A DNA stretch of 64,000 nucleotides from Pirellulales bacterium (GTDB lineage Bacteria > Planctomycetota > Planctomycetia > Pirellulales > UBA1268), in the NCBI GenBank assembly GCA_044236455.1, contig JBIIGJ010000008.1, forward strand, positions 405 to 64,404. Reading direction: 5' to 3'. Shown piece after piece: positions 23,566 to 27,272 of the stretch; the first letter of the stretch is position 1, and the number at the start of each line of letters is the position of its first letter. The position numbers and the translations under genes were made by a program. The notes under the pieces are model-generated. The model saw nothing but the letters and a program-made list of their open reading frames with translations. It did not search any database and was not told the origin of the DNA.

Positions 23566-23826
23566 GGTGACGGCAAAACCCTGGGGGGCGGAAGGGGCCT
23601 GGGTAAGGCGGCTGGCGGGTCGGATTCCCGCCAGGCCCTCAAACCTAGGACACGCTTCCGTGCCGTGCGCCGCACCGGCCTGCATGGCAGCCCGTGAAAA
23701 ATTGGCAGTCGTTGCCGGCTGGGGGGCCTGAACCCCATAATCTCGGGCTTTCCCGCGGATTCAGCTCCCCCTCACTACCGCCCCCTCAGCTCTACCGCCC
23801 CCCCAAATCCAGACAGAGGACGCGTC

Positions 23827-25314
23827 ATGGCAGGCAACATGGATGGAAAAATCGTCGCCACCGGGATCACTTTCGACGACGTTTTGCTGGTGCCGCGGCA
23901 TTCCGCCGTCGTGCCGGCCGAGGTAGACGTGGCCACTCAACTCACCCGCGGGATCCGCCTCACCATCCCGATCATCAGTTCCCCGATGGACACCGTCACG
24001 GAGAGCGAGATGGCGATCGCCCTGGCGCAGGAGGGTGGCCTGGGCGTGATTCATAAGAATCTCTCGATCGAGCGGCAGGCGGAGGAGGTGGACAAGGTCA
24101 AGCGAAGCGCCAACGGGATCATCATGGATCCCGTCACGCTCCCCCCCACCGCCACCGTGGCGAGAGCCCGTGAGGTGATGGATCAGCACAACATCTCGGG
24201 TGTGCCGATCACCGAGGACGGCCGCCGACTGGTCGGCATCATCACCCGCCGCGACCTGCGATTCGAGGAGAGCGGCGAGACCCCGATCGCCGAGATCATG
24301 ACGGGCTCCGGGCTCGTCACCGCCACCGGCACCGTCACGCTCGACGAAGCCGAGAAGGTCCTGATGGCCAACAAGGTCGAGAAGCTGCTGCTGGTCGACG
24401 CCGCAGGGATGCTCACCGGGCTGATCACGATCAAGGACATCGACATGATGAAGCGGTTTCCCAGTGCCTGCAAAGACAGGCAGGGGCGGCTGCGGGTCGG
24501 TGCTGCCATCGGCGTGTTCGATTACGACCGGGCCGCGAGCCTGATCTCCAAGGGCGTCGACGTCTTGATCGTGGACTCGGCGCACGGCCATTCGACGAAC
24601 GTCATCGAGACCGTGGCGGCGATCAAGGCCCGCTGGGGGATCGAGGTGGTGGCCGGCAACGTCGCCACCCGGGAGGGCTGTCGCGATCTGATCAAGGCCG
24701 GTGCGGATGGGATCAAGGTGGGGATCGGTCCGGGGTCGATCTGCACCACGCGGATCATCTCCGGCGTGGGCGTTCCGCAGATTACCGCGGTCTGGGAGGC
24801 GGCGACGGAGGCTGCCGCAGCCGGCGTGCCGGTGATCGCGGACGGCGGCATTCGCTACTCGGGAGACATCACCAAGGCGATCGCGGCCGGGGCCAGTTGT
24901 GTGATGATCGGCGGGCTGTTGGCGGGCGTCGCGGAGAGTCCCGGTCAGACGGTGCTCTACCAGGGCCGCACGTTCAAGAGCTACCGCGGCATGGGGTCGC
25001 TGGGGGCGATGGTGCAGGGGTCGAGCGAACGCTACCGGCAGCGGGCAACGGGTCGCGGTGCCGACAAGCTGGTGCCGGAGGGAGTCGAGGGACGTGTGCC
25101 CTTCAAGGGGCCGCTGAGCATGTTCGTCTATCAGTTGGTGGGCGGCCTTCGGGCCGGCATGGGCTACTGCGGCACGCGAACGATCGATGAGCTCCGTCGC
25201 GATGCGAAATTCATCCAGGTGTCTGCGGCCACCGTGCGGGAAAGCCATGCCCACGACATCGTCATCACGCAGGAAGCACCGAACTACAGCGTGGAACGCG
25301 GCAGCGGGGATTGA
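23827..25314 (+). CDS. guaB: IMP dehydrogenase
   Basis: [19 protein letters not shown] pair, [21 protein letters not shown] and VPEGVEG motifs. Confidence 0.98.
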
Positions 25315-25417
25315 CCGGGGGTGGGTGGATTCTCTTCGAGGAGAGCCTCTTTCTTGTGGGCCACTTCCCGCCGCGCACCGTCCGTCCACGGCGGCAGGCG
25401 AGGGGCGTTGGGCAGCC

Positions 25418-25667
25418 ATGGCGGCGGTGGCGGGCGTGGCAAGTCAGGCAGGCTGTCGTGGTCTGATCAAGGCTGGCGTGGGTGCGATGAAAGTTGCGGT
25501 CGGTTCCGGGTCGATCAGTATCGCATGCGTTGACTCTGCCTGTGGCGTTGACCGGTCCAACGCGGACTGGCGACGACGGCAGGGAAACCGTGCGGGGGGA
25601 AGCCATGCCCAGAGAATCGTCATTTCGCAGGACGCTCGGAACGACAGCCCGGAACGCGGAAGCGGGG
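25418..25667 (+). pseudogene. diverged, internally deleted partial duplicate of guaB (pseudogene or small ORF 25418-25759)
   Basis: 25436-25570 matches guaB 24661-24795 ungapped (89/135 nt, 21/45 aa, hand count); 25601-25667 matches guaB 25243-25309 (54/67 nt). Confidence 0.8.
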
Positions 25668-26444
25668 CCGAAGCGCGGGGTGCTGCCGGCCGTGATCGTC
25701 GGCTTCGCTGTTTTCGCGGGGGCGTTGCTGCAGGGGCCGGCAGGCGTGGCGCAGGGTGACGACCAGCCGGCAGTCGACGCGTCGGCATCGGTGCCGCCGC
25801 CGGGCTTGATCCTCGACGAGACGGCTGCCCAGGCACTCCTCGCCATGGACGCTGCCGAGGGAGTCGGCGACGAGATCGCGACGGGCAGGCAGCGTCATGA
25901 AGAACAGCGGCTACAGACCGGGCGGCTGGAACAGATCAGCTACGCGGAGAGCGAGGCCGCGCGCGGGGCCTGCGGTGAGCAGTCGAAGGAATGCCAGGAG
26001 GCGCTCAAAACATTGCGTGACGACGACATCGCTTCGATCGCGCTCGACATCCGCGTCGGCGGGCGGCCGGGCAGCGACTATCCCTGCGAGTGTCGGCTGG
26101 AGGGTGAGTCGTTCCAGCCGCGTCGGTTTGCCACCACGATGATGACCTGGAAGGCGGCAGGCAACTGCCACAAGCCGCTCTACTTCGAGGATTGGAATCT
26201 GGAGCGGTACGGCCACTCGCACGGACCGCTCGATCCCGTCTTTTCGGCGGCCCACTTCTTCGTGACGTTGCCGGTGCTGCCCTACAAGATGGGCGTGGAA
26301 CTGCCGTGGGAGTGCATCTATCCGCTGGGCTACTACCGGCCGGGCAGCTGTGCTCCGTGGACGGTGCCGGCGGTGCCGATCAGCTGCCGCGGCTTCGCGG
26401 CGGAGGCCGCCACGGTCACGGGGCTCGTGTTCCTGCTGCCGTGA
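25605..26444 (+). CDS. planctomycete-type hypothetical exported/membrane protein
   Basis: WKAAGNCHKPLYFEDWNLERYGH...LPYKMG...LGYYRPG core; start uncertain. Confidence 0.8.
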   Translation: MPRESSFRRTLGTTARNAEAGPKRGVLPAVIVGFAVFAGALLQGPAGVAQGDDQPAVDASASVPPPGLILDETAAQALLAMDAAEGVGDEIATGRQRHEEQRLQTGRLEQISYAESEAARGACGEQSKECQEALKTLRDDDIASIALDIRVGGRPGSDYPCECRLEGESFQPRRFATTMMTWKAAGNCHKPLYFEDWNLERYGHSHGPLDPVFSAAHFFVTLPVLPYKMGVELPWECIYPLGYYRPGSCAPWTVPAVPISCRGFAAEAATVTGLVFLLP

Positions 26445-26459
26445 GGCGGCCCGCGACCG

Positions 26460-27272
26460 TCAGTTCTTCTGGATGCTCGCGATGTAAGCGTAGCGGCGGG
26501 CGACCGATTCGAATTCCACTTCGCCACGGCCCGACTTCCCCAGGTCCACGATCGCGTCGTGCACTTCCGGCCGGTAGTGTACGTGAAACATCGCCAGCCA
26601 TCGCTTGAGGCCCGCTGCAAACACGCTCGGCAGGTCTTTCTGATCCCAGAAGTCGACGATCAGGAGATGGCCACCCGGGCGGAGATTCGCCATCGCCGCG
26701 TCGATCGCGCCGGGCCATGTGGGAATCATCGACAGGCAATACGAAAAGAAGATCGTGTCGAACGGCTCGTCCCGCCCGAACATCCGCTGGGCGTCGAGCT
26801 GCTCCGCCAGCCCCTGCCGCAGCACGATCGGCTCCTTGAATTCCTGCCCTGCCCCGCCCTCGCCCGACTGGGGAGCGGCCGGCGAAGCCGTTATTCCCAG
26901 CGACCTCTCGATGCTCGTCGCCGCGGTTTCGAGCATCTCGTGCGAGGCATCGAGCCCGTAGAGCCGTCCCGCTTCGGGCCGCTGCGCCAGCTTGATCAGG
27001 TTGCGGGCCGTGCCGCAGCCCACCTCCAAGGTGGCGGTGTTCCGTGCCGTGACCACCCGTTCGAGCATTCGATCACGGCCGAGCAGGTAATACCGCCGCG
27101 TCAGATCGTAGACATGCCGAGTGAGCCGATACATCCGGTCCATCGCCGCCGCATGGTCGGTGCCGCCCTGACGACGGTTGTTGGACGATGACACAGGGCC
27201 CAACGCAACGGGGCTGGGCGTGACGGGGCCGGGCGCAACCGTTCCAGGAGGCAGTGCGTCGGGGGTGCTCAT
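26460..27272 (-). CDS. btaB: SAM-dependent methyltransferase BtaB (betaine lipid synthesis)
   Basis: MDRMYR...YDLTRRYYLLGRD, EVGCGTARNL and FSYCLSMIP motifs; ATGA-coupled to btaA. Confidence 0.9.
   Translation of the reverse strand: MSTPDALPPGTVAPGPVTPSPVALGPVSSSNNRRQGGTDHAAAMDRMYRLTRHVYDLTRRYYLLGRDRMLERVVTARNTATLEVGCGTARNLIKLAQRPEAGRLYGLDASHEMLETAATSIERSLGITASPAAPQSGEGGAGQEFKEPIVLRQGLAEQLDAQRMFGRDEPFDTIFFSYCLSMIPTWPGAIDAAMANLRPGGHLLIVDFWDQKDLPSVFAAGLKRWLAMFHVHYRPEVHDAIVDLGKSGRGEVEFESVARRYAYIASIQKN

Follow-up and report, generated by a model that had tools for sequence, protein, structure and literature searches.

A partial guaB duplicate that probably carries a cis-regulatory cassette for the downstream gene in a Pirellulales genome

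Immediately downstream of guaB, we found a remnant of a second, partial guaB copy which probably serves today as the carrier of a cis-regulatory cassette for the next gene (here called ds), a signal that would once have been embedded in guaB itself. The remnant is located in the window, i.e., the whole 64,000-nt stretch of contig JBIIGJ010000008.1 (Pirellulales bacterium, GCA_044236455.1) that was analysed, and had been described in the original prediction as a cryptic "mini-guaB". There is hardly any doubt that this mini-guaB is an old leftover of a partial guaB duplication.

The parent gene, guaB, is an ORF on the forward strand (23827 to 25314) encoding a 495-aa IMP dehydrogenase, with the Pfam IMPDH domain (E 5e-160) and two CBS domains. 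The whole relic (25376 to 25667, same strand) joins a segment homologous to approximately codons 259-331 of guaB with another homologous to approximately codons 467-495, as delimited by blastn and by tblastn of the relics of relatives. Its 5' limit is approximate, being read from the translation in the window, and tblastn in relatives reaches codons 260-270. Block 1 (25436 to 25570, +) corresponds to guaB codons 279-323, with 21 of 45 aa and 89 of 135 nt identical. These counts are those originally given, and we also recovered the 8 of 21 conserved residues that use a different synonymous codon and the replacement of the catalytic Cys by Ser (TGC to AGT). The protein-level homology of block 1 in relatives extends back to about codon 260 (tblastn). 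Block 2 (25587 to 25667, +) corresponds to nt 1405-1483 in the tail of guaB, apart from a 2-nt indel close to the 5' end of the block. In frame from 25601 (25601 to 25666), it matches guaB codons 473-494 at 15 of 22 aa and 53 of 66 nt, so the predicted match stands with a nucleotide count slightly different from the 54/67 first given. At the nucleotide level, the blastn homology extends about 14 nt farther 5', across the indel, and because of this indel the single frame running through the blocks is not a clean continuation of guaB. The two blocks are separated by 10 codons, against 149 in guaB, which leaves 139 codons missing, in line with the predicted figure of about 140. Long relics in related species lack the same internal segment.

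When positions 25315-25900 were compared with guaB by blastn, 52 of 66 identities (E 5e-12) were obtained for block 1 and 65 of 81 (E 2e-16) for block 2, a similarity well above chance, and guaB itself is the sole other match to the relic in the rest of the genome. The relic is also present in 12 related species, giving 13 relic-bearing genomes in all. Single contigs from three lake-water runs cover positions 24960-26153, 24855-26300 and 24855-26400 with no differences; these runs are possibly the source samples, but they were separately assembled. Sequence spanning the region, proposed at the outset as a check, thus exists, and the relic is not an assembly artefact. Of the origins initially considered, a decayed tandem duplicate fits the locus: the copy has the same orientation as guaB, lies about 60-120 nt past its stop codon, and is homologous to it from near codon 260 to some 15 nt beyond the stop. 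As expected for such a relic, significant homology to an adjacent parent on the same strand was found; neutral evolution over the whole copy was not, the stretch from the motif described below to the ds ATG being slow.

Block 2 is also the called 5' coding end of ds (25605 to 26444, +), in another frame, a point overlooked in the original prediction. This ORF encodes a 279-aa hypothetical protein specific to Planctomycetota with a signal- or TM-like N-terminus, and an identical protein (P0001) is present in the protein collection. No Pfam family was assigned to it, and the protein search and the Atlas gave only Planctomycetota hypotheticals. The in-frame ATG of ds inside block 2 is kept in all 13 relics, and gene callers assign the N-terminus MTSSSRRK to ds homologues. 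We consider it very likely that ds starts within block 2.

The relatives that have no relic show a different arrangement. In all 47 relic-less family loci with a visible guaB block and in the 4 order-level genomes, an ATG located in the guaB tail begins an open ds frame. In every relic-less family locus, 56-128 nt separate this ATG from the end of the guaB stop codon (the sample comprised 5 genus members, 5 family outgroups, 4 order-level outgroups, and 36 metagenome loci with a frozen guaB block). Therefore, guaB and ds form a predicted out-of-frame overlapping pair in all relic-less loci examined. In the window, the first copy of the ds start persists as an orphan: a +1-frame ATG inside the guaB tail (25247 to 25330, +), whose frame now runs into the relic as a 190-aa ORF. 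This orphan has homology both to the N-terminus of ds, MPRESSFRRTLGTTARNAEAGPKRG, and to the sequences with which ds begins in relatives lacking the relic. Since ds is open from an ATG in the guaB tail of relic-less loci, the two genes were most likely freed of their overlap by a tandem duplication of about 730 nt.

Within block 1, alignment of the relics revealed a bipartite motif of fixed spacing, AAAGTT-N14-GTCGATC (25490 to 25516, +). AAAGT and GTCGAT are invariant and constantly spaced in the 13 aligned relics, and the nucleotides GGG TCG ATC are near-invariant (G016 reads GTG). The motif was found in 23 of 24 further metagenome loci with separated genes, the remaining one (L071) reading CAAGTC, but these counts are ascertained because the search pattern that retrieved the relic cores from metagenomes required the motif. 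In 10 of 11 pairs, divergence over the approximately 85 nt that run from GTCGATC to the ATG is lower than at the fourfold sites of guaB (e.g., 0.04 vs 0.21 and 0.06 vs 0.31), and divergence in the 58 nt upstream of the motif is similar to that at fourfold sites. In the short relics of other lineages, most of blocks 1 and 2 is gone, as is the hairpin described below, but the motif persists 8 to about 60 nt upstream of the ATG. We regard selection on the motif as likely. As a regulon signal it is not conspicuous: strict matching in this 3.8-Mb G+C-rich genome gives 3 sites, the motif itself among them, and loose matching gives 30, which is chance-like. Pairing of the two boxes with each other (RNAalifold columns 8-30) was considered and rejected, since the variants AAAGCC, AAAGGC and AAAGTTA disrupt such a helix and are uncompensated.

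In the long relics, the motif is followed by a hairpin derived from guaB codons 317-324 (25547 to 25574, +), with the core CCGGTCC (25552-25558), the loop AACGC, and GGACTGG (25564-25570). Pairing was found in 87.6% of the cells, against 72.5 +/- 2.5% in shuffles, with 0 of 500 shuffles reaching the observed value, although the structure was derived from the same alignment later used for these counts. Both sides have changed in 7 of the 10 hairpin pairs, and when the 3' partner was shifted by 1-3 columns as a control, the paired fraction was 28-55%. It does not look like an intrinsic terminator, as it is followed by GACGGCAGGG with no U run; a single terminator-like site was found at 25688-25704, inside ds, where shuffles average 0.5 such sites. 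The slow evolution relative to fourfold sites and the RNA covariation agree with the earlier suggestion that the element is retained, but not with its proposed role in modulating IMPDH: the evidence points to a cis element for ds.

The parent copy of the motif and hairpin, guaB codons 294-324 (24706 to 24798, +), behaves differently in relic-bearing and relic-less genomes. Across 30 distinct guaB sequences from relic-less loci, the third position never varies in 26 of 238 codons, and the 13 codons 294-306 contribute 9 of these, i.e., 9 of 13 against 7.6% elsewhere (binomial 4e-8, uncorrected). In relic-bearing genomes, only 4 of these 13 third positions are invariant in guaB, and in the window the synonymous sites of the block have drifted (AAGGTG ... 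TGCACC). The hairpin follows the same tendency, the six inner pairs being intact in guaB in 31 of 31 relic-less sequences, in 11 of 25 relic-bearing ones, and in 1 of 6 order-level sequences. The order-level outgroups do not have the frozen block. This frozen-versus-relaxed contrast involves few independent events, and kin share states. In addition, the relic-bearing lineages are the most G+C-rich at third positions (A+T of 0.10 vs 0.35), so the drift of their guaB could be partly compositional. In the G+C-rich rows among the relic-less sequences, third-position A+T is 0.14-0.19 outside the block and 0.29-0.50 inside it.

We suggest the following history. In an ancestor, guaB and ds would have overlapped out of frame, with the ds start about 60 nt inside the guaB tail, and guaB codons 294-324 would have held a nucleotide-level signal made of AAAGTT-N14-GTCGATC and the hairpin. 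The tandem duplication, with one end near codon 260 and the other some 15 nt beyond the stop, would have left a first copy that completes guaB and a second that provides the ds start. The remainder of the second copy would then have decayed, with a deletion removing the 139 codons that separated the signal from the start of ds, while selection would have kept the start (ATG 25605) and the signal, now 95 nt upstream of this ATG. With the signal on the relic, the guaB copy would have been free to drift. The signal would act as a cis-regulatory cassette for ds, with a promoter for a non-sigma-70 holoenzyme as the likeliest form, followed by a structured leader. The homology, the ancestral form of the overlap, the disrupted peptide frame, the contrast between frozen and relaxed guaB, and the hairpin covariation are established by the data; the direction and the number of these events, as well as the role of the signal as a promoter or leader of ds, are what we infer from the comparison.

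The number of events was approached with trees. In a first tree, all 13 relic-bearing genomes formed one clade with a bootstrap of 44, and no such clade was present in a larger one. A locus tree required 5 changes and is weakly resolved; a single clade uniting the long and the short relics is rejected by the AU test (p 0.009). The locus tree nests relic-less genus members among the relic-bearing ones (support 97/97), an arrangement not predicted by a single origin of the relic.

Whether the motif is specifically a promoter is nearly an even call, falling slightly on the doubtful side. No sigma-70 site (TTGACA-N16-18-TATAAT, at least 9 of 12 matches, with A2 and T6) was found in 25200-25800. 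The AAC/CGT hallmark of ECF promoters is absent from the boxes, AAAG(TT) and GTCGAT(C), and the sole likeness to these promoters is the bipartite layout with a fixed spacer. Our literature search found no promoter map for Planctomycetota. In the metatranscriptome run X20, one exact contig of 151 nt (25546-25696, depth 2.7) was recovered, possibly by DNA carry-over, and the contigs of this run, which cannot reveal transcript starts or levels, include nothing on 25016-25500.

The most serious alternative is that the motif and hairpin are kept because they act as RNA, be it a site for binding a protein or sRNA, an element for processing or stability of the guaB-ds transcript, or a small RNA. The covariation of the hairpin indicates selection at the RNA level, the 85 nt past the motif are conserved in a leader-like manner, no known promoter consensus fits, and in relic-less genomes the element sits inside the guaB mRNA. 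However, the boxes are conserved in sequence, with a spacer that is variable but of fixed length and no compensatory changes between them, and the short relics dispense with the hairpin, yet in six of them (L069, L071, L072, L073, L076 and L081) the boxes still stand 8-9 nt upstream of an in-frame ATG. A scan of 23700-26600 on either strand with Rfam 15 gave no match at E <= 1, and the folding of the 140-nt leader as a whole is ordinary (z -1.49; 17 of 200 shuffles as good). We thus consider a purely RNA-level role unlikely, though a serious contender. The box-to-ATG distance seen in those six short relics is where a leaderless start would lie.

It is rather improbable that the relic is an ordinary neutral pseudogene fragment whose conserved patches result from short divergence, alignment anchoring or chance, as would follow if the motif were functionless. 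The copy is a broken duplicate with decaying frames and an approximately neutral stretch upstream of the motif, the genomes are related, so that invariance is partly inherited, and the motif itself was used to find the metagenome cores. Nevertheless, the third position of the Gly codon 303 is G in 12 of 13 relics, whereas all four letters are seen at this position in the guaB of the same genomes. Differently trimmed relics of separate lineages hold the same boxes at the same spacing, and the AU result speaks against grouping these lineages in one clade. The covariation above all 500 shuffles and all slid controls, and the parent block that is frozen across the family, are also difficult to reconcile with neutrality.

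The original prediction also proposed that a catalytically dead mini-IMPDH (113 aa, or 190 aa for the longer frame) is translated and, as a mimic of the Cys loop and C-terminal tail, modulates IMPDH assembly. The stop-free frame with an ATG at 25418 does exist (25418 to 25759, +) and includes both blocks, being in fact open from 25187 as the 190-aa ORF. The match of the 113-aa ORF to PF00478 (IMPDH/GMP reductase), at E 6.8e-5, is restricted to profile positions 149-195 of 345 and scores 22.5 bits, under the gathering threshold of 25.6. The catalytic Cys of the GSICTT loop is absent, being a Ser here and a TGA stop in G012. Among the 13 relic-bearing genomes, 4 (this one, G001, G010 and G016) have an uninterrupted guaB-like frame across the two blocks, and in the other 9 it is stopped or shifted. 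Stops are found at or just past the GSI motif in G012, G014, G017 and G018; that of G012 is the TGA at the Cys position, and G017 and G018 have a TAG four codons farther on. An automated count found 6 intact frames in 18 distinct metagenome relics, but it takes the first in-frame ATG and is unreliable. Moreover, the relic is conserved at the nucleotide level, without synonymous variation, the ds start occupies block 2 in another frame, and short relics have no codable blocks left. A long open frame means little in a genome of 66.7% G+C, where such frames are cheap. Frame conservation, proposed as a check, therefore speaks against the mimic peptide, which is extremely improbable; the mini-guaB is probably not a protein, and we judge the 113-aa frame to be an incidental by-product. 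Equally remote is a displaced allele, in which a foreign 3' part of guaB, brought by a mobile element or recombination, replaced the native end and pushed the old one downstream: the relic does retain synonymous states of the ancestral type (AAAGTT and, in some relics, TGTAC) that differ from those of the resident guaB, but drift toward G/C endings explains this, the gap of about 60-120 nt between the copies is free of any element, the guaB of relic-bearing genomes falls within its genus clade (support 100/99), and the orphaned ds start in the first copy is what a tandem duplication predicts.

The relic shares with bacterial pseudogene fragments derived from tandem duplication its adjacent position on the same strand, its partial extent, the internal deletion, and the decay of frames in relatives. 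It differs from them in that parts of it are selected across the genus and beyond, and in that one of its ends is the predicted working start of ds. In duplication-degeneration-complementation, or escape from adaptive conflict, copies split the functions of a gene and the constraint on the first copy relaxes. The case is similar here, as guaB keeps the protein function, the relic would keep the embedded non-protein functions, and the constraint on guaB relaxes. In contrast to the general scheme, the split would be between coding and two overlapping functions foreign to guaB (a cis signal and the start of another gene), within a single bacterial operon-like pair, with the second copy reduced to about 180 nt. 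The relic-less guaB/ds arrangement resembles other prokaryotic same-strand, out-of-frame overlapping pairs, with an overlap of about 56-128 nt in different frames. Studies of such overlaps (e.g., PMC3887535 and PMC2268670) reportedly deal with how they arise; here the overlap has apparently been undone by duplication, and an open-access literature search returned nothing directly relevant on duplication undoing gene overlaps in bacteria.

Conserved intragenic transcription start sites on the sense strand that drive downstream genes have been described (Shao et al. 2014, PMC4161247). Relic-less guaB likewise has a promoter-like motif in coding sequence upstream of the next gene, and such a motif would explain its frozen synonymous sites. 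In contrast to those starts, the motif here is a candidate predicted from the sequence, has neither a sigma-70 nor an ECF hallmark, and lies about 570 nt upstream of ds. In relic-less genomes, this distance to the ds start would be long for a leader.

A broader scenario can be put forward tentatively, with somewhat less confidence than a promoter role. In a freshwater Planctomycetota family, the codons of the IMPDH catalytic loop would double as the promoter and leader of ds, a neighbouring, lineage-specific gene for a secreted protein; the start of ds would be overprinted on the IMPDH tail, and this triple use would have frozen the synonymous sites of guaB family-wide; partial tandem duplication would have undone this at least twice, freeing guaB, with the duplicate trimmed to exactly the two non-guaB functions. 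If true, it would be a natural, replicated bacterial case in which duplication resolved a conflict between coding and embedded regulation, lifting synonymous constraint and undoing a gene overlap. The constraint imposed by an embedded signal on the synonymous sites of an essential enzyme could then be compared before and after over dozens of lineages. A stretch left blank by annotation, or mistaken for a micro-protein, would turn out to be a regulatory cassette of traceable origin, and AAAGTT-N14-GTCGATC would be a testable candidate promoter class in Planctomycetota, as well as a handle on the ds-type protein family. Members of this family almost always follow guaB in Planctomycetota.

The guaB gene of the source genome (G000; metagenome-assembled, 3.84 Mb, 66.7% G+C, 93% complete) occupies 23827-25314 on the forward strand, with a 495-aa ORF matching Pfam IMPDH at E 5e-160. 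The partial copy originally predicted downstream of it was reproduced on the same strand: block 1 (25436-25570) matches guaB codons 279-323 with 21/45 aa and 89/135 nt identical, 8 synonymous codon differences and Cys changed to Ser (TGC to AGT), and block 2 (25601-25666) matches codons 473-494 at 53/66 nt, with 139 codons missing between the two. The two blastn matches of this relic to guaB have E 5e-12 and 2e-16, block 2 matches further 5' at the nucleotide level, beyond a 2-nt indel, and guaB alone matches the relic in the rest of the genome. An assembly artefact is contradicted by single contigs from three lake-water DNA runs, possibly source samples of the genome, which cover 24960-26153, 24855-26300 and 24855-26400 with 0 differences. 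Sampled words of 24800-26400 are 99-100% present in nineteen such runs, and independent support comes from the genus, in which another 12 species-level genomes have the same arrangement with the relic. Protein records label the relatives Planctomycetia or Planctomycetaceae. A contig of sequencing run X5 shows 15 differences over 25152-25290 and resumes at 26070, skipping 779 nt; it probably belongs to a co-occurring relative in the same lake with the relic-less arrangement, where guaB and the downstream gene overlap.

A translated, dead mini-IMPDH peptide, the mimic proposed for the 113-aa ORF at 25418-25759, was rejected because the frame is broken in relatives and the ORF scores under the curated cut-off of Pfam IMPDH. 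When the guaB-like frame is followed from the AAA GTT codons, only 4 of the 13 relic-bearing genomes (G000, G001, G010, G016) keep a single stop-free frame across both blocks, and the others present a TGA at the Cys position (G012), a stop after GSIP (G014), a TAG four codons past GSI (G017, G018), a stop before block 2 (G003, G008) or a frameshift between blocks (G002, G013, G019). An automated count left 6 of 18 distinct metagenome relics intact, although it takes the first in-frame ATG and is unreliable at several loci. The open frame through the relic begins at 25187 and reaches 190 aa, which carries little meaning given the high G+C content. A 552-aa open frame antisense to guaB (minus strand, 23761-25419) spans the whole gene and further long shadow ORFs surround it; these are typical of 67% G+C DNA, so open frames weigh little here.

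A second ORF (25494-26444), overlapping the relic in another frame, contains the downstream gene. Its start codon at 25605 falls within block 2, where the second base of a relic His codon serves as the A of the ATG. The product from this ATG begins with MPRESSFRRTLGTTARNAEAGPKRGVLPAVIVGFAVFAGALL..., an N-terminus resembling a signal or TM segment. The protein collection holds an identical 279-aa protein and 3149 homologues at E <= 0.001, those with names all being called 'hypothetical', and no Pfam family was found for it. The protein family is restricted to Planctomycetota, with a Cys-rich conserved C-terminal domain of ~165 aa preceded by a variable linker. Among metagenome loci fetched by this protein (L036-L111), guaB is directly upstream in 67 of 76, the remainder being cut by contig ends. 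Immediately 5' of the ATG (25590-25604; alignment columns 117-130), most long relics share the purine-rich GGGGGA(A)AGCC, a possible ribosome-binding site derived from guaB CGGGAAAGCC.

In relic-less genomes, the downstream frame is open from an ATG in the guaB tail itself. This is the state of five genus members (G004, G005, G006, G007, G009), five other genera of the family (G020-G024) and four order-level outgroups (G025, G026, G029, G035), and gene callers start many homologues with MTSSSRRK..., the product of the guaB tail when its frame is moved on by one base. The frame is also open into guaB in 36/36 metagenome loci with frozen synonymous sites at guaB codons 294-306 (the frozen block), the distance from the ATG to the end of the stop being 56-128 nt. 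We take the overlap as ancestral because it is the outgroup state and because it is hard to see a mechanism by which a deleted relic would revert to an intact overlap. The guaB tail in the window holds an orphaned copy of the downstream start from 25247, which parallels the working start (MPRESSFRRTLGTTARNAEAGPKRG) until ~15 nt beyond the guaB stop, and in the relics of relatives guaB homology reaches back to about codon 260. Together they form the footprint that a tandem duplication of ~730 nt would leave, copy 1 completing guaB and copy 2 providing the start of the downstream gene. An internal deletion junction is common to the long relics, which argues for their single origin. The suggestion of a decayed tandem duplicate was right but incomplete; the kept parts of the relic are the downstream gene's start and a short, conserved signal.

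Something is NEVERTHELESS kept in the relics: in the 13-relic alignment AAAGT and GTCGAT are invariant at a constant distance, forming the bipartite motif AAAGTT-N14-GTCGATC (25490-25516). The distance from GTCGAT to the downstream ATG is 90-99 nt in 11 genomes; in the other two it is 106-107 nt. In 10 of 11 genome pairs, divergence over the ~85 nt between motif and ATG is below that of fourfold-degenerate sites in guaB (0.04 vs 0.21 in G017/G018, 0.06 vs 0.31 in G008/G016, 0.19 vs 0.42 in G000/G010); the exception is G000/G016 (0.46 vs 0.33), whose versions of this stretch differ. For the 58 nt 5' of the motif, divergence is about that of fourfold sites. Within the conserved stretch, a hairpin (25547-25574; core CCGGTCC-AACGC-GGACTGG) comes from guaB codons 317-324 (CCCAGATC-ACGGC-GGTCTGGG). 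It is paired in 87.6% of cells vs 72.5 +/- 2.5 in shuffles (0/500 as high), a figure flattered by the structure having been drawn from the same alignment, although slid controls (28-55% paired) argue against this as the full explanation; double changes occur in 7 of 10 pairs.

Short relics were found in 11 metagenome loci outside the genus (L056, L058, L069, L071, L072, L073, L076, L080, L081, L082, L085), with guaB 84-91% identical to that of the source genome and its tail ending around EHKQGE. They have lost the hairpin and most of blocks 1 and 2 and retain both boxes at unchanged spacing, 8 to ~60 nt 5' of an in-frame ATG (8-9 nt in L069, L071, L072, L073, L076 and L081). AA(A/G)G-N16-GTCGA(T/A) is present in 23 of 24 separated-gene metagenome loci, an ascertained count since the cores were located by a pattern requiring the motif; in the remaining one (L071) CAAGTC replaces the first box. 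These cores are relics too, as L051, L056 and L058 carry guaB-derived flanks. On a locus tree of 76 rows with the element masked, relic state needs a minimum of 5 changes. Within the genus clade (support 100/99), relic-less members fall among long-relic rows, one such grouping having 97/97, and a smaller first tree placed 13/13 relic-bearing genomes together with a bootstrap of 44. In the AU test a single clade was not rejected for the long relics (p 0.095) and was rejected for long plus short relics (p 0.009). There was at least one duplication, and probably two.

The same nucleotides are frozen at synonymous sites of guaB in relic-less family members (...GATGGGATCAAAGTTGGGATCGGTCCCGGGTCGATCTGTACTAC..., A/T-ending codons included). 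Across codons 251-488, the 30 distinct relic-less sequences from metagenomes agree at 26 of 238 third positions, 9 of which fall within codons 294-306, the top-ranking window of 13 codons (background outside it 7.6%; binomial tail 4e-8 before correction for ~226 windows). In relic-bearing guaB, 4/13 are invariant there (p 0.054), and codon 303 ends in G in 8, T in 6, C in 6 and A in 5 of 25 distinct sequences. In guaB, all six inner hairpin pairs are preserved in 31/31 distinct relic-less sequences, 11/25 relic-bearing and 1/6 order-level outgroup sequences. Part of the drift to G/C endings is compositional, since mean third-position A+T outside the block is lowest in relic-bearing lineages (0.10 vs 0.35 in relic-less ones, range 0.14-0.56). 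Even the G+C-rich relic-less rows (0.14-0.19 outside the block) keep 0.29-0.50 inside, against 0.07 inside in relic-bearing rows. A further limit on this contrast is that kin are not independent. Speculatively, growing G+C pressure on an embedded signal that contains A/T may have favoured the duplication. Order-level outgroups have the overlap without the frozen block (loci examined: G025, G026, G029, G035, L059, L066), which makes the block a family-level addition not required by the overlap, and the embedded signal would have arisen at about the base of the family, later than the overlap.

Each ingredient is known: relics of tandem duplication, gene overlaps and promoters within genes. What is apparently new to report is a duplication undoing a bacterial overlap, with an embedded signal passing to the decaying copy and the essential gene relaxing; no such case was found in searches of open-access papers and preprints, and the passages on duplication in a review of viral overlaps name it just as one general origin of new genes (PMC8227390).

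We infer, with good support, that the kept signal is a candidate promoter or leader for the downstream gene. The layout has, judged from sequence, promoter geometry: the two boxes are asymmetric and a fixed distance apart, the spacer between them is free, their distance to the start codon varies and their orientation 5' of the gene is constant. In some short relics an ATG occupies the position expected of a leaderless start. The signal fits no known class: a sigma-70 site was not found at the relic region, the motif was not found as a repeated regulon signal in the source genome, and it has neither the AAC at -35 nor the CGT at -10 given for ECF promoters in a review (PMC8103513). The main rival is that the boxes act at the RNA level. 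A promoter 570 nt inside guaB, as relic-less genomes would require, is unusual, but conserved and functional sense-strand start sites within genes are documented (Shao et al. 2014, PMC4161247). A structured leader would fit both the hairpin and the 85 conserved nt; the search of Rfam gave no match. The sole RNA datum, an exact 151-nt metatranscriptome contig (25546-25696), starts 3' of the motif, which is compatible and proves nothing. One relic version (G001, G002, G003, G017, G018, G019) has a second GGGTCGAC ~20 nt past GGGTCGATC, with the form GCGTTGAC in the window. This copy, absent from the version of G008, G012 and G016, evolved from guaB CGGATCATC and makes a direct repeat two helical turns apart (25508-25516 and 25524-25533).
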